DNA of 64,000 bases from Comamonadaceae bacterium (GTDB lineage: Bacteria; Pseudomonadota; Gammaproteobacteria; Burkholderiales; Burkholderiaceae_C): NCBI GenBank assembly GCA_947475685.1, contig CANJNC010000011.1, positions 12,361-76,360 of the forward strand, written 5' to 3'. A program made the position numbers and the translations under genes. Positions 6,000 through 35,658 of the stretch are shown here, one piece after another. The notes under the pieces were generated by a model. That model was not told the origin of the DNA and ran no database searches. It worked only from the letters and a program-made list of their open reading frames with translations. Numbering within the stretch: the first letter of the stretch is position 1; every line of letters starts with the position of its first letter.

Positions 6000-6019
6000 G
6001 ATTTTCTCCGCGTATCAAT

Positions 6020-17415: not shown

Positions 17416-18459
<1,044 letters not shown>

Positions 18460-18463
18460 TTGC

Positions 18464-18477
18464 CCTTAAGTGTTTGA
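18464..18477 (+). repeat. Left copy of 14-bp direct repeat CCTTAAGTGTTTGA
   Basis: Exact match to 32244-32257; lies 4 bp after the ilvC stop. Confidence 0.85.
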
Positions 18478-18482
18478 CATCC

Positions 18483-18527
18483 AACCCTCTGACTGGCTGC
18501 AAAAGATAGCTGGCTAGAGGGTTTTTT
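18483..18527 (+). terminator. Rho-independent terminator after ilvC
   Basis: AACCCTCT…AGAGGGTT stem extended by G-U pairs, followed by a T tract. Confidence 0.7.
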
Positions 18528-18875
18528 ATGGCCTATTGGTTTTAGATGCAAAGTGTTGTGTAGGTCTGTCGTGCGTTGCAGGAGTTGACATTCCAATGCA
18601 AATGATCGCAAAAGGCGCTCATCCTGATTTATAAACCCGGGGTTGACAGTTGTTTGGATTTGGCCACTCAGCAAACATCAACCAACAAGCACGCAGAAAC
18701 AATTCCAGCCTTGAATGTCAGAGCTTGCTTCGTTCTCTATGGGCGCTTCAAAAAAGACTTGTCAGTATTGACTTCGCCATTTTGTCTGAATGAATAGAGA
18801 GAACCAGACAGGCCGAGTCTGATCAGTATGACGTCCATCGCACTTATATAGAGAAAATATTAACCCTGCCATGTC

Positions 18876-20195: not shown

Positions 20196-20236
20196 GTGCA
20201 GGCCTTCGCTTAAAACGATTGAAATTCACCCGTCGC

Positions 20237-21280
20237 TCAAGCGCCCAACCGAATTAAATCATCGTGGGTCAAATGCTCTGTTTGTTGTCCTATCCAACCA
20301 AGCAGTCTAGATTTCCAGTTTAAAAAAGAGGCGGGCGCTTTGACAGCAGTATACTCAAGTCGGCTTTGAGCGCCACGTTTTCGCTTAAAGTCACCTGCAC
20401 CAGAGCTGTAATTGAGCAAAAGTTGGTGCTCTAAAGTGTACTGATAGATGCTAGCAAATAACAGTCGATAGATCCCTGGCTTTGTCTCGCTTTCAAAATA
20501 ACCCAAAGCTGGAACAGTTAAAGTATCCCCAATTTGGTGCAGTAAAGCAAAGGCTACTATCTCCCCTTCTTCATTGATCAAATTCAAACAAGACATCCAT
20601 TTGGTATTGATCATGTCTTTAAAGAATGCGGGTGTGTAATTGGCATTGTAGACACTGTGTTTTTTGATGTAAATGAGTTCATACAAAGACTGAAGGCGCT
20701 CAGCTTGTAGGTCATCAATCAAGTCCATCGATGAGACTTTGAGTTTGGATTTCTTTAAGGCACTTAAGTCTCTTGTGAGATGTGAAGGTTTTACTTTCAT
20801 GCCCATTCGAAGATCGAATTCATAAACTACGCGTGCTGGCAAAGCCACAAAACCTATTTTTTTAAGATCGAGAATCAGTTGCTGGTGTTTATACATCAGC
20901 AAATTTCGAACAAATATAAAAGAACTTAAATGTTGATGTTTAAAAGATTGACACGTCTGAAATAAAGCAGTGTCGTCAGCTGTACGCCATACATTGGTTG
21001 AGATTGGAAAGTTTCCAACAATTGCGTTGTCACTCATGCCAATCGAGTTGGCCAAGTGCGAGAAGATCTTAAGGAGTGCTTTTAAAAAGCAATGGCCTTG
21101 TAGTTCATCTGCTGCGTAGTCAAACCACGCAATTTTTGGCGAAGTGATGTAGCAAGATGCAAAGGGCTTTTGTTTGTGAGTGATGGTGATCGGCAAGGCG
21201 CCAGGCTCCCAGTGGAGTTCTGCGCCCGCATTCACCATCCACTCTTGGAGCGAATGAGCCCAGGGGGCTATTTTCTTCAA
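20237..21280 (-). CDS. Uncharacterised FemAB-like tandem-GNAT protein (347 aa)
   Basis: LYELIYIKKHSVYNANYTPAFF, GEIVAFALL, LGY…GIYRLL and NYSSGAGDFKRKRGA resemble FemAB/DUF482-type GNAT motifs; TTG start overlaps the btaA stop (TTGA). Fold inferred, not searched. Confidence 0.7.
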   Translation of the reverse strand: MKKIAPWAHSLQEWMVNAGAELHWEPGALPITITHKQKPFASCYITSPKIAWFDYAADELQGHCFLKALLKIFSHLANSIGMSDNAIVGNFPISTNVWRTADDTALFQTCQSFKHQHLSSFIFVRNLLMYKHQQLILDLKKIGFVALPARVVYEFDLRMGMKVKPSHLTRDLSALKKSKLKVSSMDLIDDLQAERLQSLYELIYIKKHSVYNANYTPAFFKDMINTKWMSCLNLINEEGEIVAFALLHQIGDTLTVPALGYFESETKPGIYRLLFASIYQYTLEHQLLLNYSSGAGDFKRKRGAQSRLEYTAVKAPASFLNWKSRLLGWIGQQTEHLTHDDLIRLGA

Positions 21281-22518
21281 TGGTTGAATCTATACAAATG
21301 CAACGCGCCATAGATTCCTGAGCGATCTTGCGGACCCAAGGAGTCAGAGATTTGATGGTCTCTTGTCCACTGATCGGCCAGGGGTCCTGTCAAACAAGCA
21401 TCAACAGGCGATTGAGAGCCAGCCGTTCTGAAGATGACCCTTGCACCTGGTTTGGCCGCTTGGGTGATGGCTGTCCATACGGCAGTCAATTCATGAGGTG
21501 TCATCCAATCTTGAGCATCTAAAAGGTTCACAATATCAACTGATTGGGGGCCTAGGTTGATCAGCTTATCTCTGATGTTGTTGTGCTCAATTGAAATTTT
21601 GTGAACGCAGTCACGTAAAAAAGCATAATTTTCTTTAACCAAATATGGCGGAAGCGCACTTTGACCCGACTCATCGTATTTTCTTGCATAGGCTTGCCAA
21701 GCAAAATAGTTGTCCTTGATTGGTACAACAGTGGCCAATTGTCTAGCTCTTTGTTTTAAGATTTCTGACATTTGTTCTGGCTTGTTGTCACACAAAGCCA
21801 AGTGCTGACTTGGAGGAATACCAAGGTTGTACAAAGCGTAAGGACTGCTGCAAATTTTAGTAACCAGTCTAGAGTCGAAAATCTTAGCGACTTTTTGGTC
21901 AAACCAAATCTTTTGATCTTCAACAGTTTTTTGCTCTAAAAGTTCAGACAATTTCACGCCATGTAATTTTGCCCCCATGTGGATAATTCCAATGATCTGA
22001 CCGAGCAGACCGTATTTGTAAAAACCTTTGGCAAACATTTGAATCCTCTTGGATCCAAACGGTCCGCTTTCCCAGTACGCTCGGCTTTCTTGATCCAATT
22101 GAGGTGAAATGATCGCATTGTAGATTCTGACATTGCTCGTTGATTTTGCAATGCCAAAAAATCTAAAGAAGTCTTCGTGGTACTCCAGTGTTTTGAGCGC
22201 TGCAATTTTCAAGTGATTCAAAGCAATGTGAGCATGATTGAGATCCACAACGGAAATTTTTGCGGGATTTGCCATCAAATAGGACAAGGCGTTGCACCCG
22301 CCAGAGGCAATGGTGAGCATGTGATCGGTGCTTTTGATCTGTAAGGCATTCATGTCCACCATAGGGTCTTCCCAAATTTGTGTATAAACCAAGCGATCGA
22401 ACCACATTGCAAAAATTTTATCTTTCAGCGTTGTTTTGGATTTGTGTCCAAAAACTGCGTTGTTCAACAGTACTTTTGATTTCTTTAGGCTGAGTGTTGG
22501 ACTTGAAGTTGTATTCAT
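21277..22518 (-). CDS. btaA: BtaA: SAM:diacylglycerol 3-amino-3-carboxypropyltransferase (DUF3419)
   Basis: LVYTQIWEDP, TIASGGCNALSYL, NYFAWQAYAR, LLDAQDWM, ARVIFRTA, DRSGIYGALHLY; 413 aa, full length relative to alphaproteobacterial BtaA. Confidence 0.88.
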   Translation of the reverse strand: MNTTSSPTLSLKKSKVLLNNAVFGHKSKTTLKDKIFAMWFDRLVYTQIWEDPMVDMNALQIKSTDHMLTIASGGCNALSYLMANPAKISVVDLNHAHIALNHLKIAALKTLEYHEDFFRFFGIAKSTSNVRIYNAIISPQLDQESRAYWESGPFGSKRIQMFAKGFYKYGLLGQIIGIIHMGAKLHGVKLSELLEQKTVEDQKIWFDQKVAKIFDSRLVTKICSSPYALYNLGIPPSQHLALCDNKPEQMSEILKQRARQLATVVPIKDNYFAWQAYARKYDESGQSALPPYLVKENYAFLRDCVHKISIEHNNIRDKLINLGPQSVDIVNLLDAQDWMTPHELTAVWTAITQAAKPGARVIFRTAGSQSPVDACLTGPLADQWTRDHQISDSLGPQDRSGIYGALHLYRFNH

Positions 22519-22594
22519 GAGTGAAAAAAATCCCTATGGATGAAGATATGTATCCAATTGTGGATCACTAATATTTCATTTGAATGTTACTTTT

Positions 22595-22612
22595 ATTACT
22601 TTTTAGTGACTT
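22595..22612 (-). promoter_or_regulatory. Weak PhoB-box-like site upstream of btaA
   Basis: Minus strand AAGTCAC-taaa-AAGTAAT; no clean -10 at 10 bp. Confidence 0.35.
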
Positions 22613-22696
22613 AACAATTTTTATCAACTTCAACATTCAAGGCTTGGACAGATCGTTGCGATCGTTTTTTTAAAATTTAAGCACATAAGATTCAAA

Positions 22697-22714
22697 ATGT
22701 CACAAACCTTTAAT
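22697..22714 (+). promoter_or_regulatory. PhoB-box-like site for the TPAT-NPP operon
   Basis: ATGTCAC-aaac-CTTTAAT, then a 10-bp spacer and TAATAT (22725-22730). Confidence 0.7.
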
Positions 22715-22742
22715 GTGCAAAAGGTAATATATTTGCAAAATA

Positions 22743-23654
22743 ATGGACACAAAAATGTCAAATTCAGTTGTAAAAAAAAGCATCTTTATTTTCTGGGCAA
22801 TGACTGTACTTTTAGCAACGCCTGGTTGTGCAATCAACACCTTTGTAGTCGATCAAGTGGCAAAGAACCTTGTATCAGAGGATGACCATGAACAAGATCT
22901 ATTTTTAGCTCGGGATGCCAGTCCTTTTTATTTAAAGTTGACAGAAAATTTATTGATCCGTTCGCCCGCAAATTTAAACTTGGCACAAGCCGTTTGCAGT
23001 GGTTTTACACAGTATGCATATACATTTATTGCATTTGAAGCAGAAAAAATTGAAGGCAGTGACTACAAGCGTGCAGAGGTCTTAAGAGAGAGGGCCTCCA
23101 AGATGTATGCGCGTGCATTCAATCATGGGATGAAAGCATTGGATTTGAAGTTCAGTGGTTTTGGTGCAAAGCTTAAAGCCTCAGGCAATATGGACCCTAA
23201 AGTTATACCATCAACAGATGTAGGACTTCTTTATTGGACGGCGGCTTCTTTGGGCGGTTGGATATCAACCGCCAAGGACATGCCGGACTTGGTTGCAGAT
23301 TTCCCCATTGCCCTTCGTTTAGCGCATTTGGCGTGGCAAATAGATCCGTCCTATTCTCAAGGTTCTTTGGCAAGCCTCATGGGTAACTTTGAGTGGGCCA
23401 ACCCGAACGGATCAAAGCCATTGGCAACACAATATTTCGATTGGGCAATTCAATATTCAAAAGATCAAAATGCAGGTCCCTTTGTCTCCAAAGCAGAAAA
23501 GGTTGCTGTGGCAATGAAAGACAGGCGAATGTTTGAAAAACTTCTCAATCAAGCAAAAGAGATCGCTCAAAAATACCCAAATTTACAAAATGAGGCCATG
23601 CGTTTGCGTGCACAATGGTTACTTGAAAACGAAGACGAGCTTTTTGAAAGTTGA
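22743..23654 (+). CDS. TRAP-associated TPR lipoprotein (TatT component of a TPAT system)
   Basis: Lipoprotein-like signal (…LATPG-C), AVCSGFTQYAYTF, LLYWTAASLGGWIS helical TPR-like repeats; immediately upstream of DctP. Start may be ATG 22755. Confidence 0.85.
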   Translation: MDTKMSNSVVKKSIFIFWAMTVLLATPGCAINTFVVDQVAKNLVSEDDHEQDLFLARDASPFYLKLTENLLIRSPANLNLAQAVCSGFTQYAYTFIAFEAEKIEGSDYKRAEVLRERASKMYARAFNHGMKALDLKFSGFGAKLKASGNMDPKVIPSTDVGLLYWTAASLGGWISTAKDMPDLVADFPIALRLAHLAWQIDPSYSQGSLASLMGNFEWANPNGSKPLATQYFDWAIQYSKDQNAGPFVSKAEKVAVAMKDRRMFEKLLNQAKEIAQKYPNLQNEAMRLRAQWLLENEDELFES

Positions 23655-24673
23655 AGATGAACTTAAACCGATTGGTCCGAATTTTTTCATGTTTGGTTTT
23701 TCTTGCTTTTGCAAGTTCAAGCTTTGCAGCGGACAAGCCCTTGAGGATGGGGACACTGGCACCCAAGAACTCTCTTTATTACAGACAACTCATTGAAGTC
23801 GCTGAGGCGTGGAAAGGTGCCGCAGGGGGTAATTCAAAGTACACCGTGTACGCAGACGGTAGCCAAGGAGGAGAGACAGAGCTTGCCAGAAGGATGCGAA
23901 TTGGGCAACTGCAAGGCGCGCTCTTGTCAGTGGTGGGTTTGAAGGAAATTGAACCCTCTATCAGTGCATTGCAGTCCATGCCCTTGCTTTTTAAAAGCTG
24001 GGAAGAGCTTGATTTCGTTCGGGAAAAGATGCGTCCTGGCATGGAGAAGAAATTTCTTGAAAAGGGATTTGTTGTCTTGGCTTGGGGAGATGCAGGCTGG
24101 GTCAGGTTCTTTTCAAAGGAGCCGGCTTTTAAGCCAGATGATTATAAAAAGATGAAGTTTTTTTCCTGGGGAGGGGAGCCCGAACAGCAAGAGATCATGA
24201 AGAGCTTGGGCTATACGCCCGTTCCTTTGGAGACGACAGATATTTTACCGTCTATACAAACGGGCATGATTTCTGTGGTTCCCTCTACACCGTATTTTGC
24301 AATGGCCAGTCAAATCTACAACACAGCCAACAACATGCTTGAGATCAATTGGGCACCGGTCGTTGGAGCTTTGGTGATCACTAAAAAAGCATGGGATGAG
24401 ATGAGTCCTTCAACCCAAGAAGCGGTTCGATCGGCTGGCGACAAGGCGGGAGATCAAATCAGGATCAAAGCCCGCCTAGAAGTTGAAGAGGCGGTAGAGG
24501 CCATGAAAAAGAGAGGTTTGATTGTGAACAAACCCTCGCCAGAGCAAATGAAAGAGTGGAACACCCTTGCTGCAAACTTGTACCCCAGGATTAGGGGAGC
24601 AATGGTCCCGGCAGAAACGTTTGATGAAGTTTTCAAACATTTAAATACATACAGAGCTGGCAAGCAAAAGTGA
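23651..24673 (+). CDS. dctP: TRAP solute-binding protein (DctP/TatP type)
   Basis: LRMGTLAPKNS, RMRIGQLQGALL, PVPLETTDILPSIQTGMI; 4-bp overlap with TatT. Confidence 0.92.
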   Translation: MKMNLNRLVRIFSCLVFLAFASSSFAADKPLRMGTLAPKNSLYYRQLIEVAEAWKGAAGGNSKYTVYADGSQGGETELARRMRIGQLQGALLSVVGLKEIEPSISALQSMPLLFKSWEELDFVREKMRPGMEKKFLEKGFVVLAWGDAGWVRFFSKEPAFKPDDYKKMKFFSWGGEPEQQEIMKSLGYTPVPLETTDILPSIQTGMISVVPSTPYFAMASQIYNTANNMLEINWAPVVGALVITKKAWDEMSPSTQEAVRSAGDKAGDQIRIKARLEVEEAVEAMKKRGLIVNKPSPEQMKEWNTLAANLYPRIRGAMVPAETFDEVFKHLNTYRAGKQK

Positions 24674-26451
24674 AATTGAATCAAATCAAACTGGATGAAA
24701 TTATTTCATCCCTAGCCTTGATTTTAATGGCAATCATTCCAGTGATTGAAATCCTTGCCCGTCCAGTACTTGGCAAAGGTATTGAAAACGCTCCAATTTT
24801 GGTTCAACACTTTGGGCTTGTGATGTCCATGTTTGGGGCCATTGCAGCTTATCGTTTTGGACATCTTTCAAGTATTGGCGTTATATTCAACTCGTTTAAG
24901 ATTCCTGCACGAATCTTATCGAGTTTAATCTGTGGCTTATTGTGCTGGGCGTGTTGGCATTTTGTGAGCACTGAAAGATCGGCCAATCAAATGTTGGCTT
25001 ATTCAATACCTTTGTGGATTTTACAATTGGTCATGCCAATTGGATTCTTGCTCTTGAGTTGGCAAATCGTCTCTGAGGGTTTGAATTTATTTTTATCTAA
25101 AGCCGTTGCAATTTTAAGCGTGAGCGTCATTAGTTATTTGCTTTTTCAGTTTTTTGAATCAAATGCAACGTCGATATGGCCCATGCTGTTGATTTTGGTG
25201 GTTATGTTTTTAGGCGGTGCACCCATATTTTCCATCATTGCCGCTTTGGCTTTGGGATTGTTTTTGCAAGATGGTTTGCCACTGTCCTCTGTGGCTTTGT
25301 CGCATTATCAAATCACGGTCAACCCATCGTTGCCTGCGTTGCCCTTATTTACGCTGGCTGGGTTGGTTTTTGCATCGACCGGGTCGGCCAAGCGTTTAGG
25401 GCTGTTATTCATGGCTGTGTTTGGCACGGGTGTCAGAGGGACCGTGTTTGCAACAACCGTTTTATGCTCATTTTTCACGGCCTTTACTGGAGGCAGTGGG
25501 GTGACCATTTTGGCGCTTGGAGGCTTGTTGCTCCAACTGTTAAGTGACACTGGATATTCGAAAAAAAGAGGGATTAGTCTTGTGACCAGTGCGAGTGCCC
25601 TTGGTGTTTTATTGGCACCTTCTGTACCACTGATCATGTATGCGATTATTGCTCGCGTACCGATCAACGATATGTTTTTGGCAGGTCTTGTGCCAGCATT
25701 GGTCATGGTCTTGTCATTGTTGGTATTTGGTGGATATCTAAAGAAGGAAAATCAATTTGAAGCAAAAGAGCATGTCCATGCTTTTTCATGGTTGAGATTA
25801 AAGCAGGCGAGTTGGGATGCAAAATGGGAAATTTTGACGCCATTTGTTGCTATAGGTTCCCTGGTCAGTGGGTTTGCAACGCCTACTGAAAGCGCTGCGA
25901 TTACAGCCGTTTATGCCATCGTCACTCAAATGATCTTTAACCGAGAATTGAGTTTGGAGCAATTTAAACACTCATTGCTTAAGTGCACACAAATTATTGG
26001 GGGTGTCATGTTGGTCCTTGGCATGGCATTGGGCATGACCAATTACTTAATTGATGCGGGAATTCCTGACCTGGCAATCCAATGGGTTCAGGGCATCACG
26101 AGCAATAGATATGTTTTCTTGCTTGCGCTTAATGTATTTTTATTTTTTGCTGGTGCGCTGATGGAAATTTACGCAGCCATCGTTGTATTGGTGCCCTTGT
26201 TGTTGCCCTTGGCGCTGTCTTATGATATTCATCCGATTCATTTTGGCATTATCTTTTTGGCCAATATGGAGATGGGATTTTTATGTCCACCTGCGGGCAT
26301 GAATATATATTTCGCATCCGCTGTATTTAACCAACCTTTAAAGGATGTGGCCCTCTCCATTTGGCCAGCATTGATTGCTATTTTTATCGGAACTGTTATT
26401 ATTTCTTGGCTTCCGTTACTGAGCACTGGCTTGCCTCAGTTTTTCAAATGA
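24670..26451 (+). CDS. dctM: Fused TRAP small+large permease (DctQM)
   Basis: 593-aa polytopic protein; ALPLFTLAG, AFTGGSGVT, LLAPSVPLIMYAI, ATPTESAA, HPIHFGIIFLANME…CPP. Confidence 0.92.
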   Translation: MKLNQIKLDEIISSLALILMAIIPVIEILARPVLGKGIENAPILVQHFGLVMSMFGAIAAYRFGHLSSIGVIFNSFKIPARILSSLICGLLCWACWHFVSTERSANQMLAYSIPLWILQLVMPIGFLLLSWQIVSEGLNLFLSKAVAILSVSVISYLLFQFFESNATSIWPMLLILVVMFLGGAPIFSIIAALALGLFLQDGLPLSSVALSHYQITVNPSLPALPLFTLAGLVFASTGSAKRLGLLFMAVFGTGVRGTVFATTVLCSFFTAFTGGSGVTILALGGLLLQLLSDTGYSKKRGISLVTSASALGVLLAPSVPLIMYAIIARVPINDMFLAGLVPALVMVLSLLVFGGYLKKENQFEAKEHVHAFSWLRLKQASWDAKWEILTPFVAIGSLVSGFATPTESAAITAVYAIVTQMIFNRELSLEQFKHSLLKCTQIIGGVMLVLGMALGMTNYLIDAGIPDLAIQWVQGITSNRYVFLLALNVFLFFAGALMEIYAAIVVLVPLLLPLALSYDIHPIHFGIIFLANMEMGFLCPPAGMNIYFASAVFNQPLKDVALSIWPALIAIFIGTVIISWLPLLSTGLPQFFK

Positions 26452-26476
26452 TCTCACTCTACCTTAGGCATTTAGA

Positions 26477-27709
26477 TTGATTAGTCGGCGCTCACTTCAA
26501 CACTTGTTGATTATTTGTTTAGTCAACTGCATGTGCACTTTGGCTTTAAATAGCTTTGCACAAAGTAAAACTCCTCCAAAACCGCTGGTGCTTCTCATTG
26601 GAATTGATGGTTTTAAACCAAGTTACTTGACACTGGGTGTGACACCTCGATTAAAGTCCTTGGCGCAATCTGGCGTTCTTGCAAAGGGTTCTATTTCTGC
26701 ATTTCCATCTTTGACGTTTCCAAACTTTGTGAGTTTGGTGACGGGTCTAACGCCTGATCACCATGGAATTGTGAACAACACCATGACCGATCCAGCAACC
26801 GATCAACTCTTTACTTTGAGTTCAAGAGAGGCCGTTGAGAATCCCTTTTGGTGGACGAAAACCACTCCCATTTGGACCAACTTGAGACAACAAGGCGGTA
26901 TAGCCTCTGCTATGTTTTGGCCTGGTTCTGAGGTTGAAATCAACGGCAGTCGCCCCAACGACTGGGTGCGATATGAGCATGGCATGTCACACGAAAGAAG
27001 GCTTGAATATTTGGTGTCTTGGTTGTCCAGAGGAGAGACTTTAAGACCCAATCTTGCAACACTTTATCTCTCTGATGTTGACTCTGCTGGGCATGAGTTT
27101 GGGCCAGACAGTGAACAAGTTAGGGATGCAGTTGCAAAGGTCGATCAGACTATTGGAGCATTAATCGATGCAATTTCAAACTTGGGATTAAAGGAGAGAA
27201 CGACCTTTGTACTTGTTTCTGACCATGGTATGGCCAGTACGCCTGCGGCCAAGTCCATCGATGTCAGTCAATTACTAAAAGATTTTCCAAAAGCCAAATG
27301 GGAGTGGCAAGGTGCAACTTCTGCTGTCAGACTCAATGGTGAAAATGGATTGCAAGTTCTAAATGTACTGTCTCAGCAATCCAATCTTGATTGTTATGAG
27401 AAAGGTAAGTTGCCGCAAAGCTTTAAGTTTGGTACCCACCCAAGAATTCCAGAGATCGTTTGCGTGTCCAAAATGGGTTACACCGTTACAGCCAACCCTT
27501 ACCGCAAGGGGCCGCTTGGTCAACATGGGTTTGACCCTCTGTTGACTGAAATGCATGGACTCTTTTTGGCATCAGGCCACCGGATCAAACCTGGCGAATT
27601 GGGCTTGATCGAGAACATCGAGGTTTACCCACTCTTATGCCAACTGCTCGGTATTCTTGAGCAAAAAAACGATTCCAAGCACCTCTTAAAAGACATCGTT
27701 TTGAATTAA
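26477..27709 (+). CDS. Nucleotide pyrophosphatase/phosphodiesterase (NPP, alkaline phosphatase superfamily), exported
   Basis: GIDG, PSLTFPN (Thr nucleophile), DVDSAGH, SDHGM, GQHGFD; N-terminal signal with SRRSL. Confidence 0.92.
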   Translation: MISRRSLQHLLIICLVNCMCTLALNSFAQSKTPPKPLVLLIGIDGFKPSYLTLGVTPRLKSLAQSGVLAKGSISAFPSLTFPNFVSLVTGLTPDHHGIVNNTMTDPATDQLFTLSSREAVENPFWWTKTTPIWTNLRQQGGIASAMFWPGSEVEINGSRPNDWVRYEHGMSHERRLEYLVSWLSRGETLRPNLATLYLSDVDSAGHEFGPDSEQVRDAVAKVDQTIGALIDAISNLGLKERTTFVLVSDHGMASTPAAKSIDVSQLLKDFPKAKWEWQGATSAVRLNGENGLQVLNVLSQQSNLDCYEKGKLPQSFKFGTHPRIPEIVCVSKMGYTVTANPYRKGPLGQHGFDPLLTEMHGLFLASGHRIKPGELGLIENIEVYPLLCQLLGILEQKNDSKHLLKDIVLN

Positions 27710-27730
27710 TCCTTGTTTAGTTTATCAGTT

Positions 27731-27757
27731 AAAAAGGCACCAAATGAGTGCCTTTTT
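27731..27757 (+). terminator. Terminator after NPP
   Basis: AAAAAGGCAC-caaatga-GTGCCTTTTT. Confidence 0.8.
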
Positions 27758-27865
27758 CTATTTGCGAGAAAAATTATTTAATTTGATATTAAAGTTTTAT
27801 TTATTTTTGTGGTTTTTGTGTTTTTGACTTTAAGAATGAATTATTTTAACTAGGGTAATCCATGG

Positions 27866-27883
27866 ATGTCACAAGAATGTAAC
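27866..27883 (+). promoter_or_regulatory. PhoB-box-like site for exbD-tonB-TBDR-exbB
   Basis: ATGTCAC-aaga-ATGTAAC, then a 10-bp spacer and CACAAT (27894-27899). Confidence 0.8.
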
Positions 27884-27905
27884 TTAGTTTTCGCACAATG
27901 ACTTG

Positions 27906-28355
27906 ATGCGCAGATTCCCTTACCAAGCTAGGAAAAAGTCACGAATTGAAATCATTCCAATGATTGATGTGATGATGTTTTTACTGGTTTTCTTTGTGCT
28001 CATTAGCATCAATGTGATTCCCGCTTTGGGCATCAAGATGAATTTGCCCAGCTCCAATTCTGTCAAAGAGGAGCATCCACCCATTCGTGTCATCTTAAGC
28101 ATATCAGCTGATGGGTCTTATCAGCTTGATGGGCAAAGCTTTGCTTCGCTTGAGAGCTTAAAGTCGGCCTTATTGGGTCTTAAACATCAAAACGAAGCCA
28201 AGTCCAGTCAAAACGCCTTGATCAATTCAAGTCCCCGCCTCGCAGTCATTATCAATGGAGATGAGCAGTCTCCACTACAGCGTTTGGTGGATGTCATGGA
28301 CATGCTCAAGTCAAGTGGCATTGATTCAATGACCATTGCGTCAAAGAAAAAATAA
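27906..28355 (+). CDS. exbD: ExbD/TolR biopolymer transport protein
   Basis: IEIIPMIDVMMFLLVFFVL (TM Asp), VIINGD…LVDVMDML. Confidence 0.93.
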   Translation: MRRFPYQARKKSRIEIIPMIDVMMFLLVFFVLISINVIPALGIKMNLPSSNSVKEEHPPIRVILSISADGSYQLDGQSFASLESLKSALLGLKHQNEAKSSQNALINSSPRLAVIINGDEQSPLQRLVDVMDMLKSSGIDSMTIASKKK

Positions 28356-28360
28356 AAGAT

Positions 28361-29062
28361 ATGAATGCGGCGCTTCAATGGACTTATGAAAAAAGAGACC
28401 CCATCTCTTTTGTCAGCGCATTTCTTTTGGGATTGTTGGTTTTGTTGCTGATTCAAGTATCTGCAATCAATTTTTCAAAAAACGCTGATGTTGAAATGAC
28501 GGCTTTCATTGAATCGCCTCCTGTGCCTGAAATCATCAAACCACTCGAACCCATTAAGAAGGTGATCGAGAAACAAGAAATCCAAAAGAGAGCGGAGCCT
28601 GTGATGCCAAAGCAGGTCACCTCTCCTTTTGCAACCGAAGCGCCCAAAGAAGCCAAGCACGTCGAGACCCCAGTGCCCCTGGAAAAACCTCAAGTCCTTC
28701 AAGCACCTCAACACATCACGCCTCCTGCGCCTGTTCCATCTGCTCAACCTGTACCTTCAACTGCAAGTATTTACGAAGCTCAGTTGAGATCTTATTTGGA
28801 GAAGATCAAACGCTATCCCACCATTCGAGAGGCGCGACTCACCAGACCACAGGGTGCTGTTCGTGTTTGGTTGGAGATTTCTAGAAACGGGCAGGTCCTA
28901 GGCGTGGGTGTCATGACGTCATCGGGCTCGAATTTATTGGATGGAGAGGCTTTGAAAACCTTGAAAACCGGTTCGTATCCTGCTTTTCCTGAGGATGCGT
29001 ATGTTGGTGAAAATGCCCATAAGTTTTCTGCAACCCTTAATTACACCCTTGAGCCTCAATGA
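28361..29062 (+). CDS. tonB: TonB energy transducer
   Basis: N-terminal TM, Pro/Glu/Lys-rich linker, C-terminal RYP…PQGAVRVWLEISRNG…SSGSNLLD. Confidence 0.92.
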   Translation: MNAALQWTYEKRDPISFVSAFLLGLLVLLLIQVSAINFSKNADVEMTAFIESPPVPEIIKPLEPIKKVIEKQEIQKRAEPVMPKQVTSPFATEAPKEAKHVETPVPLEKPQVLQAPQHITPPAPVPSAQPVPSTASIYEAQLRSYLEKIKRYPTIREARLTRPQGAVRVWLEISRNGQVLGVGVMTSSGSNLLDGEALKTLKTGSYPAFPEDAYVGENAHKFSATLNYTLEPQ

Positions 29063-29130
29063 ATTGAGGGTTTGGTTGCAACAGTTTTGTTTTTTGAGAT
29101 TTTAAAGTTCAATTATTTTTAGGAGAAAAA

Positions 29131-31524
29131 ATGAAGAAGTCGAATCGTGTTTTCCAACTGTCCTTGTTGAGCATTGCTCTTTTGAGCACGGGATATTTTT
29201 CATCCGCCATGGCGCAAAAGGCGCCTACCGATGTGGGTACCGTCAAAATCACGGGTGAGGGTGATGCATTGGGCAATGGGCTTTTGATTGATGAAGACGG
29301 TGTAAAAACAAAAAGCACTGTTACAAAAGCTTCGATTGACAAAGAGCGTCCAACCGCCAATGCATATCAAGTTTTGAACTTGATGCCCAGTGTCAATGCA
29401 TCGAGCTACGATGCCACAGGACTTTTTGGCGGGAATTTAAGAGTGAGAGGTTTTAACAGTGATCAAATGGGTTTCACCATCAATGGCGCTCCTGTCAATG
29501 ACTCTGGTAACTTTGCCATCTATCCACAAGAGTATTCTGATATTGAGAACATGTGCGAAGTCTTCATTACACAAGGATCTGTGGACACCGATGCACCCCA
29601 TGTAGGCGCCTCAGGCGGTAATGTTGGCATGGTGAGTTGTTCACCCAAGGACAAATTTGGCGGTAAGTTTTCCGGCTCATTGGGCGATTTGAACTTCAAG
29701 CGTTCCTTTTTGCGACTTGATACCGGTTTAATAGGCAAGGAGCATCCCTTTAAAGCCTTTATCTCCTACTCGGCTGCTTCAGTTGATAAATTCAAAGGGC
29801 TTGGTGGCGCCAATCGCCATCACACAGATGTTGGTTTAGATTGGAAGCTGACCGATAACACAACATTGACATCCAACTTACTTTACAACTTTGCTGTAAA
29901 TAATAATTTTTTGACTCTGACCAAAGCGGAGTTTGCTCAAAATCAAAACCTTGATTTCAGCTCCACGGTACCTCAGCACCTGGCATCGGGCTCGGAGAAC
30001 ACCACTGCCAATTTTGGTACCAGCAGCGCTGGTGCAACGCCAAGAACCAAGTTGGCTTACTACAACTACTCTTTGAATCCATTTGAGAACTATCTCTTCA
30101 CCTCACGTTTGCAAACTCGAGTTGATGATAAATTGACCCTGAGTGCAGAGCCCTATTTTTGGTACGGTTATGGCACTGGTGGTACTCAGCAGACAACGCT
30201 TGCCGAATCAAGCACTGGATTTCGCGCAGGGATTGCAGATATCAACAAAAATGGCAATACAACCGACACAGTCGGTATCTACAGAGGAAGTGTGACCGAG
30301 ACGAACCGCCCAGGCATTACATTCAAAGCCAATTACGACCTAGGCGATCACAAGATTTTGGCCGGATTGTGGATGGAGCAAGCTCGTCATCGTCAAACTC
30401 AGCCTGCGACCACCATGGACAACAGTGGAACTGTTTCTGACCTTTGGCTAAGAAATAATTTATTGAAATACAACGATGGTAGTTTGTATGAGGGTAGAAA
30501 TTACAAAACCGTATCCACTGCTTACTCCTTGTTCTTACAAGACACGATTTCCATGGGTCGCTTGGACGTCGTTCCTGGTGTGAGATTTTCTTCCATCAAG
30601 CGTGACTTTACCAACTACGCATCAAGTGGATCTGGCTTAGGAGCAGATTATTCTACTGACAGAACATTCACCAAACCTTTGATGTCTTTAGGTGCGCGTT
30701 ACAAAATCGACGACTCATTGCAAGCTTACGCAAACGTTTCACAAAATTTGCGTGCCCCGTCTAATTTTGTCTTGGCAGGCTGGGTCACTGGCGGAACGTA
30801 TGCCAATGGCGCATTGACTGGATATAAACTTGTTGCTAACAACTCCATTCAAGCTGAGACATCGGTTGCGACTGAGGCTGGTCTGCGTATCACTGAGGGA
30901 GATGTCAAAGGATCAGTTTCATTGTTCCAAGTCAACTTCAAGAATCGAATTGCTCAAGGATTCAATCCTGACACGGCCACTTACACTGACTACAACGTTG
31001 GGGACTCGACCATCAAGGGTTTAGAGCTGCAAATGGGCACCAAGCCCGTCAACGGTTGGAGTGTGTTTGGTTCTGCAACGTACACGCAAAGCACAATCTC
31101 TAACAACTTTCCCGCAACGGCAACAAGCACCTTGCCCACTGCTGGCGCCACGTTCCCTGACACACCTCAGTGGATGTATGCTGCCTCTGTGCAATACGCT
31201 TCTGGCCCTTATCTCGCGTCCTTGTCTGGTAAGTACACGGGCAAGCGTTACACCACACTGGTCAACGACGAGTTCTTAGATGCCTATACGGTGTTTGACT
31301 TGAATGCGGGCTATCGCTTTGACAATGGTGCTTTCTTCAAGAGCCCAACAGTGCGTTTGAATGTGAGTAATTTGTTCAACAAGAACTATTTGATTGCCAA
31401 TTCTGGAAGTGGCTCAAACATCACCACCTCCACAACGGCAGCCAGTTCACAAGGCGGTGGTTTTCCAAGCTACTATGTTGGAGCGCCCAGGTTTGTCAGC
31501 ATGTCTTTTAGCTCAGACTTCTAA
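29131..31524 (+). CDS. TonB-dependent outer membrane receptor (797 aa)
   Basis: Signal peptide, TonB-box-like DVGTVKITG, plug NLRVRGF…DGFTING-like segment, beta-barrel periodicity, terminal Phe (SSDF). Confidence 0.94.
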   Translation: MKKSNRVFQLSLLSIALLSTGYFSSAMAQKAPTDVGTVKITGEGDALGNGLLIDEDGVKTKSTVTKASIDKERPTANAYQVLNLMPSVNASSYDATGLFGGNLRVRGFNSDQMGFTINGAPVNDSGNFAIYPQEYSDIENMCEVFITQGSVDTDAPHVGASGGNVGMVSCSPKDKFGGKFSGSLGDLNFKRSFLRLDTGLIGKEHPFKAFISYSAASVDKFKGLGGANRHHTDVGLDWKLTDNTTLTSNLLYNFAVNNNFLTLTKAEFAQNQNLDFSSTVPQHLASGSENTTANFGTSSAGATPRTKLAYYNYSLNPFENYLFTSRLQTRVDDKLTLSAEPYFWYGYGTGGTQQTTLAESSTGFRAGIADINKNGNTTDTVGIYRGSVTETNRPGITFKANYDLGDHKILAGLWMEQARHRQTQPATTMDNSGTVSDLWLRNNLLKYNDGSLYEGRNYKTVSTAYSLFLQDTISMGRLDVVPGVRFSSIKRDFTNYASSGSGLGADYSTDRTFTKPLMSLGARYKIDDSLQAYANVSQNLRAPSNFVLAGWVTGGTYANGALTGYKLVANNSIQAETSVATEAGLRITEGDVKGSVSLFQVNFKNRIAQGFNPDTATYTDYNVGDSTIKGLELQMGTKPVNGWSVFGSATYTQSTISNNFPATATSTLPTAGATFPDTPQWMYAASVQYASGPYLASLSGKYTGKRYTTLVNDEFLDAYTVFDLNAGYRFDNGAFFKSPTVRLNVSNLFNKNYLIANSGSGSNITTSTTAASSQGGGFPSYYVGAPRFVSMSFSSDF

Positions 31525-31530
31525 AAGTTC

Positions 31531-32091
31531 ATGACTGAGTTTTTACACCAAGCCTCATTTGGGCTGATGATCATCTCTGCCATCATTGCAACCGTGGTGA
31601 GTGTGGAGAGGATCATCTTCTCCAGTATGAATCTCAAGCGTGCAAAACTTTTGACAGCCAGCATCGACACACAAAGAGGCTCTATGGGGTCTTTGTTGGG
31701 CCAAGATGTGGTGTCTGAAATGGTGCAAAAACTCTTGGACGATAAGGCTCAAAACTTTGCACCTGCTGTTCAACAAGACAGGGCTGACGCCGCATTTATT
31801 CACGCAAAAGATGAATTGGGCGATAGACTTTGGATGCTTGACACGATTGTGACCGCAGCGCCATTGATGGGGCTCTTGGGGACCATTTTTGGCATTGTGG
31901 ATACCTTCTTGGCACTTTCCAAGTCCGGTATGTCTGACCCCGCGGGGGTCAGTGCAGGCATTGGAACGGCTCTTTACGCCACAGCTCTGGGGATTTCTAT
32001 TGCTTTGATAGGCCTTTTTGCCTTTAACTTTTTGAGTGACCGCAATGAGAGAATAGGTGAGCATTTGAAGATGTTGATTTTGCGTCTTTAA
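31531..32091 (+). CDS. exbB: ExbB/MotA/TolQ proton channel
   Basis: TIVTAAPLMGLLGTIFGI, GIGTALYATALGI. Confidence 0.92.
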   Translation: MTEFLHQASFGLMIISAIIATVVSVERIIFSSMNLKRAKLLTASIDTQRGSMGSLLGQDVVSEMVQKLLDDKAQNFAPAVQQDRADAAFIHAKDELGDRLWMLDTIVTAAPLMGLLGTIFGIVDTFLALSKSGMSDPAGVSAGIGTALYATALGISIALIGLFAFNFLSDRNERIGEHLKMLILRL

Positions 32092-32117
32092 GCTTCAACC
32101 TTTGATGAGGCACACCC

Positions 32118-32157
32118 GCCGCTAACTGGATCTTGAGCCAGTTGGCGGCCTTTTTTT
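32118..32157 (+). terminator. Terminator after exbB
   Basis: GCCGCTAACTGG-atcttgag-CCAGTTGGCGGC then T7. Confidence 0.85.
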
Positions 32158-32243
32158 ATGTGTTCGATCAGCCCATTCCTTCATTGGGGTGAGTTTTCTG
32201 CGCTTTGTGCTCAATGGGGTTCCCTTTGAGGGCTTCAAATTTA

Positions 32244-32257
32244 CCTTAAGTGTTTGA
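32244..32257 (+). repeat. Right copy of 14-bp direct repeat CCTTAAGTGTTTGA
   Basis: Exact match to 18464-18477; 94 bp upstream of the psd start. Confidence 0.85.
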
Positions 32258-32351
32258 TTTCATTTGAGAAAAACTCATTTTTTGAAATGAATTAAAAAGT
32301 TCTCTTAGCCCATTACAATCAAAGGCAACAAGATTTACCAAAGGTGCTGCC

Positions 32352-33002
32352 TTGAATTATCCACATCCTATTTTGGCAAGAGAAGGTTGGCCTTATATTG
32401 CCATGAGTTTGATTGCAGCCTTTGTGGCCCACTGGCAGGGAGGGTGGGCCTGGGGTTTGCTCTTTGATCTGATGGGTGTTTTTGTCATCCAGTTTTTTCG
32501 TGACCCTCCCAGAGAAATTCCCCGTGAAGAGGATGCGGTTTTGTCGCCCGCAGATGGTCGAGTGATCAAGGTCGAGCGGGCTTTTGATCCTTACGCCAAT
32601 CGAGAAGCGATTTTGATCAGTGTATTCATGAATGTGTTCAATGTTCATAGCAACCGAGTGAGCGTGAACGGCACCGTCAGCAAGATTGAGTATTTTCCGG
32701 GTAAGTTTTTCAATGCAGATTTAGACAAGGCCTCTACAGAAAATGAGCGCAATGCCATGGTCATTGAAGCTGAATTTGCCGGGCACTCCAAAACCATCAC
32801 TTTGGTGCAGGTTGCAGGCCTGATTGCCAGAAGAATCCTTTGCTATGTCCAAGTTGGAGATCAGCTTCAAAAAGGTCAGCGTTATGGGTTCATTCGTTTC
32901 GGCTCTAGAGTGGACGTGTATTTACCCATCGACGCGATCGTGAAAGTTTCTCCTGGAGATAAAGTCTCTGCGACCATGACCATTTTGGCTAAATTAAGCT
33001 GA
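32352..33002 (+). CDS. psd: Phosphatidylserine decarboxylase proenzyme
   Basis: [31 protein letters not shown] (GS autocleavage site). Confidence 0.96.
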
Positions 33003-33038
33003 TGGGCTTTGAGCATTTAAGTACTTGTATTTTAAGGA

Positions 33039-33893
33039 TTGAAACAGATGAATTCCCTTGAGCCCTCTGAGGTGAAGCACAGCGCTAGAAAGCCCCGCAA
33101 AGGGATTTACATGTTGCCCAATTTGGTGACATTGGCTGCTTTGTTTGGTGGTTTTTACTCCATCGTGATGGCGATGAACGATCGCTTTGACGCGGCCACC
33201 ATGGGTGTTTTTTGCGCCATGATTTTGGACAGCTTAGATGGCCGTGTTGCTCGCATGACCAATACGCAAAGTGCGTTTGGTGAGCAAATGGATTCTTTGG
33301 CCGATATGGTGTCCTTTGGAGCAGCTCCTGCCTTGATCTCTTATGAATGGGCCCTAAAGGGCTTGGGTCGCTGGGGCTGGATAGCTGCATTTTTGTACTG
33401 TGCCTGCGCTGCGCTGCGTTTGGCCAGGTTCAATGTGAACACGAGCGTGGTAGACAAGCGATTTTTTCAGGGCTTGCCTTCCCCAGCTGCCGCGGCGGTC
33501 ATCGCGGGTTTTATTTGGCTGATCAACGACGCGGGTATAGAGGGCCCAACGGTTGCTTGGGGGATGTTTGCGCTTAGTTTATTCGCAGGTTTGAGCATGG
33601 TGACCAATGCGCCTTATTACAGTTTCAAAGATATTCAAATGAAGCAAAGCGTCCCCTTTGCAACCATTGTTTTATTGGCCTTGATCATTGCCGTCATCAA
33701 TATCCATCCGCCCACCGTCTTGTTTGCTTTGTTTGTCGGGTACGCTTTATCTGGTTACCTCATTTACGCTTGGCGAAAGGCCAGCGGCTTACAAACAAGC
33801 GTGATCAGCACTTCAACGCATGAACCCGAAGAGTCTGGGCTTCACGACTTGGAGCCGGAAAAAGACGATCAACCCAAACAGCCGCAACGCTAA
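33039..33893 (+). CDS. pssA: CDP-diacylglycerol--serine O-phosphatidyltransferase
   Basis: LPNLVT, DSLDGRVARMTNTQSAFGEQMDSLADMVSFG (CDP-alcohol phosphotransferase motif). Confidence 0.96.
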   Translation: MKQMNSLEPSEVKHSARKPRKGIYMLPNLVTLAALFGGFYSIVMAMNDRFDAATMGVFCAMILDSLDGRVARMTNTQSAFGEQMDSLADMVSFGAAPALISYEWALKGLGRWGWIAAFLYCACAALRLARFNVNTSVVDKRFFQGLPSPAAAAVIAGFIWLINDAGIEGPTVAWGMFALSLFAGLSMVTNAPYYSFKDIQMKQSVPFATIVLLALIIAVINIHPPTVLFALFVGYALSGYLIYAWRKASGLQTSVISTSTHEPEESGLHDLEPEKDDQPKQPQR

Positions 33894-33954
33894 AAAACAA
33901 CGCTGCAAAATCCTTCCAATTTGCCCTCAAGATAATTGTGTTAAACTTCATATC

Positions 33955-34005
33955 ATGAACAAATTGCTGTCTCTGCTATTGCTGCGCTTTAACGGGCGGA
34001 GTTAG
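33955..34005 (+). CDS. leuL: leu leader peptide MNKLLSLLLLRFNGRS
   Basis: Six Leu in seven codons (TTG CTG tct CTG CTA TTG CTG), upstream of leuA. Confidence 0.85.
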   Translation: MNKLLSLLLLRFNGRS

Positions 34006-34059
34006 ACGCGAGCGTTCAAACCCCAAAGAAGCCCGTATGCAGTCGCAACGGGCTTTTTT
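33955..34059 (+). promoter_or_regulatory. Leucine transcription attenuator
   Basis: Terminator AAGCCCGT…ACGGGCTT + T tract (34029-34059); ACGGGC (33992-97) can pair with GCCCGT (34031-36) as antiterminator; 1:2 pause hairpin across the leader. Confidence 0.88.
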
Positions 34060-34119
34060 GTTGTGCGGCTCGGGTGAATTGGGAAAAGTCAAAAGAAATT
34101 AATTGCTAAGGAGTATTTC

Positions 34120-35658
34120 ATGGCCGACAAATTGATCATTTTTGATACCACATTAAGAGATGGTGAGCAGTCCCCCGGGGCCTCTATGACCAAAGACGAG
34201 AAGTTGCGCATTGCTCGTCAACTGGAGCGCTTGAAGGTGGATGTGATTGAGGCAGGCTTTGCGGCGAGCTCCAATGGTGACTTTGAAGCCGTGCAATCCA
34301 TTGCAAAAACCATCAAGGACTCCATTGTTTGCTCGCTCTCAAGGGCAAATGATCGAGATATCAGTCAAGCTGCTTTGGCTCTTAAGAGTGCTCAGCAAGG
34401 ACGAATTCACACCTTCATTGCAACCTCGGCGCTTCACATGGAGAAGAAGCTTCGCATGACGCCTGAACAAGTGCTCGAGCAAGCAAAACTCTCGGTTCGA
34501 TTTGCCAAAAATTTGGTCGCCGATGTTGAGTTCAGTCCAGAAGATGGCTACAGAAGCGACGAGGATTTTTTGTGCAGAGTCATTGAAGCTGTGATTGCCG
34601 AAGGGGCAACGACCATCAATGTGCCTGACACGGTAGGTTATGCGGTGCCTGAGTTGTACGGCCAGTTCATTAAAAATTTACGACAACGCGTGCCCAACAG
34701 CGACAAGGCCATTTGGTCCGTTCATTGTCACAATGACTTAGGCATGGCTGTGGCCAATTCCTTGGCCGGCGTGATGATTGGAGGCGCAAGGCAAGTGGAG
34801 TGCACCATCAATGGCTTGGGCGAGCGTGCAGGTAACTGCTCACTTGAGGAGATTGTGATGGCGGTCAAAACCCGCAAGGACTACTACGGTTTGGAGATCG
34901 GCATCGATGCCAAGCACATTGTGGCGACCAGTAAAATGGTGAGTCAAACCACGGGCTTTGTGGTGCAACCCAACAAAGCGGTGGTGGGCGCGAACGCGTT
35001 TGCGCATGCCTCAGGTATTCACCAAGACGGTGTTCTAAAAGCTCGCGACACCTATGAGATCATGCGAGCAGAGGACGTGGGTTGGAGTGCCAATAAGATT
35101 GTCTTGGGCAAGTTAAGCGGTCGCAATGCGTTCAAGCAAAGGCTGCAAGACTTGGGCGTTCAACTCGAGAGTGAGACGGATATCAATACCGCGTTTTCAA
35201 AATTCAAAGAATTGGCTGATCGCAAAAGCGACATCTTTGATGAAGACATTTTGGCCTTGGTCAGTGATGACAGCGTGACTCAGGGCCAAGAGCAGTTCTC
35301 CTTTGTGTCTTTGTCTCAACGAAGTGAGACCGGGGAAAAGCCGTTTGCTAGCATTGTCTTTAAAGTGCAAGGTCAAGAGGTCAAAAGCGAGTCTGAGGGC
35401 AACGGCCCTGTGGACGCTTCACTTAAAGCCATTGAAAGCTTTGTCAAAAGCGGGGCCGAGATGGTTCTGTATTCTGTCAACGCCATCAGTGGTTCAACCG
35501 AGTCCCAAGGGGAGGTGACTGTTCGTTTGCAAAACAGTGGGCGTGTGGTCAATGGCGTTGGATCTGACCCCGATATTGTGGTGGCTTCGAGCAAGGCCTA
35601 TTTGAGTGCTTTAAACAAACTGCAAAGTAAATCCGATCGCGTTGCCGCCCAAGGGTAA
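34120..35658 (+). CDS. leuA: 2-isopropylmalate synthase
   Basis: [32 protein letters not shown]-terminal regulatory GNGPVDA. Confidence 0.98.

Follow-up and report, generated by a model that had tools for sequence, protein, structure and literature searches.

A Pho-box operon uniting a TonB-dependent receptor with its own Ton motor, a candidate nucleotide importer of freshwater Burkholderiales

Which substrate would a bacterium bring across its outer membrane with a receptor that is encoded together with its own energising motor behind a promoter of the phosphate-starvation type, and where does the messenger RNA (mRNA) of such an operon begin? The question is raised by the exbD-tonB-TBDR-exbB operon (TBDR, TonB-dependent receptor) at positions 27866-32157 of a 64,000-nucleotide stretch of DNA from a Comamonadaceae bacterium. 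The whole stretch, termed the window, corresponds to C11:12361-76360 of a 3.77-Mb genome (47.8% GC, 146 contigs) whose nearest named relatives are freshwater Burkholderiales metagenome-assembled genomes. Contigs of this genome (G000) carry C-numbers, related loci and genomes are labelled L0xx and WIN denotes the window, to which coordinates without a prefix refer. Taken as a whole, the locus is best explained as a self-energised import system for nucleotides or oligonucleotides, induced by PhoB and made from an mRNA that is probably leaderless in the window clade, an explanation we hold to be probable on balance.

The promoter of the operon is built on a Pho box, TGTCACAAGAATGTAAC, at 27867-27883 on the + strand, with two direct half-sites (TGTCAC and TGTAAC) in 11-bp periodicity, in agreement with the direct 7-bp repeats of PhoB-activated sigma-70 promoters, at the position of a -35 element. 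A spacer of 10 nt (27884-27893) leads to the -10 hexamer CACAAT (27894-27899), which is followed by GACTTG (6 nt) and the exbD ATG at 27906; the near-consensus Pho box with CACAAT behind it, described in an earlier note on this DNA, is present as claimed. A PhoB equivalog that exceeds the curated cut-off with 320 bits is encoded next to pstS, pstC and pstA on one contig, and the arrangement of a 17-nt box, exactly 10 nt and a -10-like hexamer is common to pstS, ppx, phoA2, ppk2, the TAtT-TRAP operon and phoD (contig C4). The exact pattern TGTCAY-N5-TGTMAY occurs five times in the whole genome, a count that is not enriched (about 3.6 expected from base composition); four of these sites fall at the exbD promoter, within the spacers of pstS/ppx and of phoA/ppk2, and ahead of a DUF47-PiT pair. 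A weight matrix trained without the exbD site and combined with the spacing rule places this site 7th of 29 genome-wide, behind ppk2, an unexplained C33 site, ppx, phoA2, pstS and TAtT. In the window the box followed by 10 nt and NANNNT (at most one mismatch) is found three times compared with 0.19 expected, a number reached in none of 100 shuffles, and all three sites stand before phosphorus-related genes. The half-sites are invariant in L001, L002, L003 and L013, forming a footprint across four related genomes, and the orthologous cassettes of Limnohabitans have AGTAAC-N5-TGTCAC with 10 nt and TATGCT.

Control by iron or cobalamin was sought in the same region. In a genome-wide scan for Fur boxes the best 19-mer upstream of exbD matches at 11/19 positions, a background level reached at thousands of positions, and nothing above background is found at the exbD promoter or at a second Ton cluster described below. 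The consensus scan of 27760-27900 gives no -35-type or consensus sigma-70 promoter on the + strand. An Rfam search of 18000-34200 returns no riboswitch or known RNA at E<=1 except two weak matches near leuA, and no cobalamin riboswitch (BtuB-type uptake) is found in this range; the leaderless geometry of the operon would leave no space for a riboswitch. A conserved AGGGTTATCC directly upstream of the Pho box is out of phase with the half-sites and was set aside, as no interpretation was found for it. Judged on its sequence, the exbD promoter is a genuine phosphate-starvation promoter, and the operon very probably depends on PhoB in vivo. The Pho-like rather than Fur-like control proposed in the earlier note is supported by the PhoB equivalog, by the shared geometry at core Pho genes, by conservation and by the poor Fur match.

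Pho-type sites were also observed elsewhere in the genome. Three phased half-sites (TGTCAT TGTTT AGTCAT TGAAT TGTCAT) lie at 3331-3358 (+) of the window with no convincing -10 and no open reading frame (ORF) of at least 120 amino acids downstream on the + strand, and they might drive a small ORF or a small RNA. The site at C33:19020 is a perfect Pho box, TGTCATGAACTTGTCAT, with the second-best weight-matrix score and no ORF of at least 80 amino acids within 200 nt downstream. At C10:42486 (-), a Pho-like box with the 10-nt/-10 geometry is placed at an OlsB-like N-acyltransferase gene, which resembles the GNAT cluster adjoining the cassette in Limnohabitans; this site suggests Pho-controlled ornithine-lipid synthesis.

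The -10 hexamer ends 6 nt before the exbD ATG, and because the Pho box fixes the -10 at this distance the transcription start (+1) is expected on the ATG itself. No Shine-Dalgarno sequence precedes the ATG at 27906, the AGGAG of the receptor gene being the only good ribosome-binding site in the operon. Across five genomes (WIN, L001, L002, L003 and L013, with receptors 91-92% identical) the half-sites, ACAAT and ATG are invariant and the box-to-ATG distance is 22-23 nt, the box, the -10 and the ATG being all that is conserved upstream. Both the 10-nt spacer and the 6-7 nt that precede the ATG vary in sequence yet keep their length in these genomes, which argues for a leaderless mRNA. The -10, 6 nt and ATG recur in L005, L006 and Polynucleobacter L009 with weaker boxes, the exbD start codon is ATG in every locus, and the predicted mRNA has less structure over its initial 60 nt than its shuffled counterparts (z +1.25).

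The position of the start codon was considered separately. The TTG at 27903, given as the start in the ORF list, is specific to the window and was rejected; the codon before the ATG in L001 is a stop codon, so that the conserved start is ATG 27906. Nor can translation begin further downstream, because the N-terminal tail of ExbD, MRRFP..RKKSRIEIIPMIDV, is conserved as protein in relatives. The internal ATG (Met19) was rejected on this account, as it would delete the conserved cytoplasmic N-tail, and the nearest AGGA is more than 20 nt upstream of it. A leaderless start of the exbD mRNA is accordingly predicted as the likely case, and the probable leaderless first gene of the earlier note gains support from the constant -10-to-ATG distance, the variable spacer, the invariant ATG and the unstructured 5' end.

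A different arrangement is present in the Limnohabitans-type loci (L022:8822-8851, L050, L026-L029 and L060-L063) and in L008 and L064, where the Pho box, 10 nt and TATGCT are followed by a leader of 27-32 nt (29-30 nt in the Limnohabitans-type orthologues). In the Limnohabitans-type loci this leader is approximately one hairpin, for example CCGTTGATCAAATAACGG, ending a few nucleotides before an ATG that has no Shine-Dalgarno sequence, and in L008 and L064 the hairpin ends directly at the ATG; it may be a 5' stabiliser or a translational element. Since the Limnohabitans-type orthologues have this hairpin leader, leaderlessness would be a feature of the clade and not of the family. Similar promoter geometries were noticed at other genes. 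Two ArsR-like regulator genes (C86:2253 and C45:26874) have a Pho-like box, 10 nt, a good -10 (TACTAT and TATAAT, respectively) and an ATG 6 nt later, as in the leaderless geometry of exbD. In the promoter of the TAtT operon (22698-22745), the -10 TAATAT (22725-22730) ends only 12 nt before the annotated ATG at 22743; the leader of the TAtT-DctP-DctQM-NPP mRNA (NPP, nucleotide pyrophosphatase/phosphodiesterase) would then measure about 5-6 nt, unless translation begins at the ATG at 22755.

Pfam assigns the four co-directional genes of the operon, which are separated by intergenic gaps of 5, 68 and 6 nt and flanked by two intrinsic terminators. exbD (27906-28355, 149 amino acids; PF02472, 98 bits), whose ATG is the predicted +1, encodes a transmembrane segment, IIPMIDVMMFLLVFF, that carries the conserved Asp and is near-invariant across relatives. 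The tonB-family gene (28361-29062, 233 amino acids) encodes an N-terminal transmembrane helix, a Pro- and PxP-rich linker and a TonB_C domain (PF03544 38 bits, cut-off 24.6; TIGR01352 35 bits). The receptor gene (29131-31524, 797 amino acids), with plug PF07715 and barrel PF00593, is preceded by the only strong Shine-Dalgarno sequence of the operon, AGGAG at 29121-29125, within TTTTTAGGAGAAAAAATG, which is conserved in L001-L003 and L013. exbB (31531-32091, 186 amino acids; PF01618, 85 bits) is of the short type and begins 6 nt past the receptor stop codon. ExbB and ExbD together constitute a Ton motor, and with TonB and the receptor the set is complete, which is in keeping with the dedicated energised outer-membrane system of the earlier note. 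All of these genes lie on the + strand.

The single terminator that had been placed at 32118 is confirmed as a 12-bp stem (32118-32149) followed by a T-run, ending at 32157 (-25.2 kcal/mol, z -4.0). It is the sole strong terminator downstream of exbB, and its position is kept through compensatory stem changes in L001, L003, L004 and L013. Upstream, a terminator at 27731-27763 (+; fold AAAAAGGCAC...GUGCCUUUUU, -12.1 kcal/mol, z -2.8, then a T-run) closes the TAtT-DctP-DctQM-NPP operon and parts it from the exbD unit. A terminator-like hairpin at 29054-29069, between tonB and the receptor gene, is absent as a conserved feature in L001/L002 and was dropped as a regulatory element.

The gene order, with the receptor inside the motor genes and exbB last, had been described as scrambled. 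The order itself is real, and it is not a local scrambling. tblastn with the window proteins places the receptor between an upstream exbD and a downstream exbB in 36 of the 69 related loci, and ORF clustering of these loci reveals a divergent tonB between exbD and the receptor; the recurrence of this arrangement identifies the order exbD-tonB-TBDR-exbB as a conserved cassette. Its carriers include Polynucleobacter, Limnohabitans, Curvibacter, Uliginosibacterium, Sulfuricellaceae and the alphaproteobacterium Telmatospirillum. The cassette is patchy in the genus of the window (3 of 36 other species) and is present in the cultured Polynucleobacter kasalickyi VK13, P. rarus MT-CBb6A5, Limnohabitans sp. 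MMS-10A-178, Uliginosibacterium aquaticum and Rhizobacter sp. Root404. Because the ribosome-binding sites of exbD and tonB are absent or weak, the AGGAG of the receptor gene is strong and exbB follows 6 nt behind the receptor, it is conceivable that more ExbB than ExbD is made; that the order serves such a stoichiometry is speculation.

The window genome encodes seven plug-domain receptors and four TonB_C proteins. A second complete Ton module was observed at C4:54107-60363 in canonical order, comprising phoD, a 753-amino-acid TBDR, exbB, exbD and tonB. Its phoD product has a Tat signal, and the gene has the Pho box TGTCACCTTTTGGTCAC with 10 nt and TAAAGT; the TBDR gene has a weaker box, GGTCACAGATTTGAAAT, with 10 nt and TACCAT. 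The cassette receptor and this one are the only two found with an adjacent exbB-exbD-tonB set, and both are hence tied to Pho-box phosphatases.

The AlphaFold2 (AF2) model of the receptor (pLDDT 81.6, pTM 0.83) shows a plug in a 22-strand barrel, and Foldseek matches it with probability 1.00 to about 50 solved TonB-dependent transporters. The closest folds are YncD/PqqU (TMt 0.84-0.85) and FecA (0.79-0.82) with identities of 14-18%. A conserved segment after the signal peptide, DVGTVKITGEG, with the consensus TDVGxIxVTGEGD, resembles a TonB box, and AF2 confidence is below 50 for residues 1-47. The receptor falls below the cut-off of every NCBIfam TBDR family, the siderophore models TIGR01783 and TIGR01786 scoring 117 against a cut-off of 223 and 109 against 324, and its sole PDB sequence match is 9rvq, which is weak (E 7e-7). 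Assignment to a characterised family was therefore abandoned, the folds being generic and no substrate being indicated, and the receptor belongs to an uncharacterised clade.

The surroundings of the cassette point more clearly to a class of substrate. In 27 of the 31 loci with enough flanking sequence to be evaluated, a UshA-like 5'-nucleotidase, a PhoD-like enzyme or an NPP is placed within 700 nt of the cassette. Most frequently the direct neighbour is the UshA-like 5'-nucleotidase, for which a lipoprotein signal is common; three genomes have the 5'-nucleotidase as a fusion with an S1/P1 nuclease. A PhoD-like phosphatase is the neighbour in Polynucleobacter, and in the window clade it is an NPP. 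The exported NPP of the window (26477-27709, +; PF01663, 271 bits), the last gene of the neighbouring Pho-box operon, has the Xanthomonas NPP 2GSN as its best PDB match (E 8e-80) and holds the position of the 5'-nucleotidase or PhoD-like gene in other genomes; it is likely the periplasmic partner enzyme of the cassette. A CNT-family (NupC-like) nucleoside transporter (18876-20195, -; PF07662/PF01773) is located at the far end of the island. CNT transporters are found near the cassette in five lineages, that of the window included, with a homologue 2-3 kb upstream of exbD in L039, L040, L045 and L066, and the window transporter is the likely route for released nucleosides. The operon between CNT and cassette begins with the TPR-protein-associated TRAP transporter (TPAT) genes TAtT-DctP-DctQM (22698-26451, +), whose Pho box at 22698-22714 is followed by 10 nt and TAATAT. 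These genes adjoin the cassette in 12 loci, DctP being 73-76% identical between the window and the Limnohabitans-type loci and the window DctP being closest to T. pallidum TatP(T) (4DI3), and the transporter may form the inner-membrane leg of uptake. Two Pho-box alkaline phosphatases lie at 4548-7492. The cassette itself is within an approximately 14-kb stretch of lower GC between ilvC and psd. The two weak Rfam matches are at 33978-34062 upstream of leuA (Thr_leader, 26 bits, on the + strand and a Burkholderia small-RNA model on the - strand), and a leucine attenuator with a leader peptide is the probable identity of this element.

In Uliginosibacterium, Aquabacterium and Rhizobacter the cassette is located beside deoA (pyrimidine-nucleoside phosphorylase), a PNP_UDP_1-family phosphorylase and an ABC transporter, and the same loci encode the S1/P1-5'-nucleotidase fusion and an ExeM-like secreted nuclease (Exo_endo_phos, LTD and PKD domains). 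A protein of the metalloenzyme superfamily in these loci is a putative phosphopentomutase (deoB), and the ABC transporter, from its context, a putative nucleoside importer. Perfect GCAAACGTTTGC palindromes are present upstream of the cassette in these genera (L041:8562 and 8740, L042:8586 and 8775, L035:8688 and 8712, L030:9937, and also L054, L057 and L067). The palindrome resembles a PurR operator, as a PurR/LacI-type look-alike, and is taken as a lead only. These cassettes look as though they belong to a nucleic-acid catabolic rather than a Pho regulon. Nucleic-acid-derived substrates would then be the common denominator of the cassette family, wired to phosphate starvation in the window lineage. 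Because the relatives adjoin nucleotide-cleaving enzymes, import of nucleotides or of DNA/RNA fragments as a phosphorus source is favoured, and we incline, by a modest step, to the view that the receptor imports a nucleotide-type substrate. The uptake of an organophosphorus compound suggested in the earlier note agrees with this gene context and may be narrowed to nucleotides and nucleic-acid fragments.

The following sequence of events is proposed. At low phosphate, phosphorylated PhoB would bind the Pho box at 27867-27883, which stands in for a -35 element, and would recruit sigma-70 RNA polymerase to the CACAAT -10. Transcription would begin at, or within one base of, the A of the exbD ATG (27906) and would yield a leaderless exbD-tonB-TBDR-exbB mRNA ending at the terminator at 32118-32157. 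The products are predicted to form a self-contained Ton system of a proton-driven ExbB/ExbD motor, a cognate TonB and one receptor, which would consequently be independent of the other Ton motors of the cell. The receptor would bring nucleotides or short oligonucleotides, as nucleic-acid-derived organic phosphate, into the periplasm, where NPP and the two Pho-box alkaline phosphatases would free phosphate and nucleosides for uptake by PstSCAB and the CNT transporter, respectively.

Several points weigh against this reading. CACAAT is a weak -10 hexamer, and Pho boxes are weak or missing upstream of some distant orthologues. Several neighbouring genes in the window genome are also without a clear Shine-Dalgarno sequence, so that its lack before exbD is not distinctive by itself. 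The SxxxH transmembrane motif, which is essential in E. coli TonB and includes its His20, is absent from the transmembrane helix of the cassette TonB, and neither His nor Asn occurs in this helix in the window or in 12 related cassette TonBs; the protein has its transmembrane anchor, PxP-rich region and TonB_C domain and is a divergent subtype, its family membership being unaffected. (A conserved RDP-x-S motif was observed directly before the transmembrane helix in the same set of TonBs.) Since the receptor has no characterised close relative, assignment of the substrate rests wholly on gene neighbourhood. For mononucleotides, which are of a size that porins admit, a TonB-dependent route is not obligatory. 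The TRAP transporter, for which this scheme does not account, is the main ground for considering another substrate and could point to one that bears a carboxylate or is hydrophobic.

This last point leads to the possibility that the same promoter and machine serve another phosphorus compound, namely polyphosphate or pyrophosphate, phytate, glycerophosphodiesters, phospholipid head groups or a phosphorylated carboxylate entering via the TRAP (TPAT) transporter. TRAP binding proteins usually bind organic acids, and the recurrence of TAtT-DctP-DctQM in 12 loci, the high conservation of DctP and the nearest solved relative, TatP(T), are in keeping with such a substrate, as are the lipid-remodelling btaA of an island that adjoins psd and pssA, the Pho boxes of ppk2 and ppx, and the many phosphodiesters accepted by NPP and PhoD-type enzymes. 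The gene most often found directly beside the cassette nevertheless encodes a 5'-nucleotidase of UshA type, in some loci as a fusion with S1/P1 nuclease, the deo genes, PNP-family phosphorylase, ABC transporter, CNT and ExeM-like nuclease of other loci indicate nucleic acids, and no phytase, glpQ or phn genes were seen adjoining the cassette, all of which makes another phosphorus compound rather improbable. It is very improbable that the receptor imports no phosphorus compound at all but a metal cofactor (Zn, Fe or Ca) for the metallo-phosphatases and nucleases of phosphate starvation. NPP, PhoA, the PhoD-like and UshA-like enzymes and the S1/P1 nuclease are all metallo-enzymes by family, metal-ion TBDRs exist and the structural matches of the receptor include the copper transporter OprC, but no Zur- or Fur-type control is seen, the receptor sequence has no His- or Cys-rich loops, and the nucleoside catabolism genes and PurR-like operator of other genera would be left unexplained.

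That the operon is a TonB system of the ordinary kind for iron-siderophores, haem or cobalamin, controlled by Fur or a riboswitch, is hardly credible. Its attraction lies in the weak NCBIfam similarities, which are to siderophore and haem receptor models, and in the presence of Fiu, FecA and FhuA among the closest folds; these NCBIfam scores are far below cut-off, and in place of a Fur box (11/19 at best) or a cobalamin riboswitch the locus has a Pho box and phosphorus-scavenging neighbours. Concerning the mRNA, a further promoter within 27760-27866, or transcription running on from the NPP operon, could provide it with a leader, ExbD being translated without a Shine-Dalgarno sequence. Such translation would be in company with that of several genes here and of the Limnohabitans-type orthologues behind their hairpin leader, the NPP terminator is only moderately strong at -12.1 kcal/mol, and the weak CACAAT favours the same view. 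Against this, the consensus scan of 27760-27900 is without a sigma-70 promoter on the + strand, the position of the Pho box sets the -10 and hence the +1, and the distance of 22-23 nt from box to ATG is conserved in five genomes with the intervening sequence free to vary, so a leadered operon is an unlikely alternative to the leaderless one, if one to be kept in mind.

Among the major pools of organic phosphorus in phosphorus-limited lakes are dissolved nucleotides and extracellular DNA. To our knowledge, no mechanism has been established by which Limnohabitans or Polynucleobacter would capture nucleotides or DNA at nanomolar concentrations across the outer membrane. The cassette wired to PhoB is a concrete and testable candidate for outer-membrane nucleotide capture in these abundant freshwater Betaproteobacteria. 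If the proposal of a PhoB-induced, leaderless and self-energised nucleotide importer is true, the operon would be a clean natural example both of a PhoB-dependent leaderless promoter and of a dedicated Ton motor independent of other Ton motors. A wider claim, which we regard as possible though short of likely, is that the cassette represents the first Proteobacterial family of TonB-dependent transporters dedicated to nucleotides or oligonucleotides, taken up as dissolved organic phosphorus or as fragments of extracellular DNA. Such a family would practise 'selfish' periplasmic hydrolysis, would have its own motor whatever the iron status and would have been rewired between PhoB (the window and Limnohabitans, with a degenerate box in Polynucleobacter) and a PurR-like regulon (Uliginosibacterium, Aquabacterium and Rhizobacter), with a leaderless mRNA in the window clade. 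Were it merely another PhoB-controlled receptor of unknown substrate, it would be an ordinary member of a known regulon.

The cassette belongs to the same protein families as the E. coli TonB-ExbB-ExbD system and its Fur-regulated receptors, with the same 22-strand barrel and plug, and the nearest folds of the receptor, YncD/PqqU and FecA, are transporters of small polyanionic ligands. The differences from the E. coli system are control of the Pho rather than the Fur type, a different gene order, the short ExbB (186 amino acids) and a TonB without SxxxH. The Vibrio cholerae pathway for extracellular DNA and nucleotides is under PhoB control and includes nucleoside uptake of the NupC type; we know of no TonB-dependent step in it. 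V. cholerae is reported (PMC4714964) as using nucleotides and extracellular DNA as phosphate sources via secreted endo- and exonucleases and phosphatases. In the Bacteroidales, the DNA-utilisation locus ddbABCDEF combines nucleases with a TonB-dependent transporter that is believed to take up the products of nucleic-acid breakdown for hydrolysis in the periplasm, and the same study reports that DNA is poor as a phosphorus source (PMC12478041). That transporter is SusC-like with a lid partner, DdbD, and has no dedicated motor and no Pho control, whereas no SusD or DUF5689 surface lid lipoprotein is found in or beside the window cassette; the likeness is one of function, as an analogy, and not of family.

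Parallels in regulation are found in two other bacteria. Pseudomonas aeruginosa exbB2-exbD2-tonB4 (PA0693-PA0695) is an uncharacterised second Ton motor induced by phosphate starvation through PhoB and sigma-VreI (PMC7035377). It differs from the window cassette in its canonical exbB-exbD-tonB order with no receptor inside, its extracytoplasmic-function (ECF) sigma cascade and its virulence-associated locus. Caulobacter crescentus has several TBDRs of unknown substrate under PhoB control, which appear with exonucleases, a nucleotide pyrophosphatase and phosphatases (PMC11208175). The Caulobacter receptors are stand-alone genes dependent on the general Ton motor, in contrast to the window receptor, which is packaged with its own exbD, tonB and exbB. 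No publication on this cassette or its receptor turned up in searches of the literature. PhoB-regulated TonB receptors are thus already known, and the new aspect is the variant described here, a conserved, self-energised and Pho-controlled receptor cassette.

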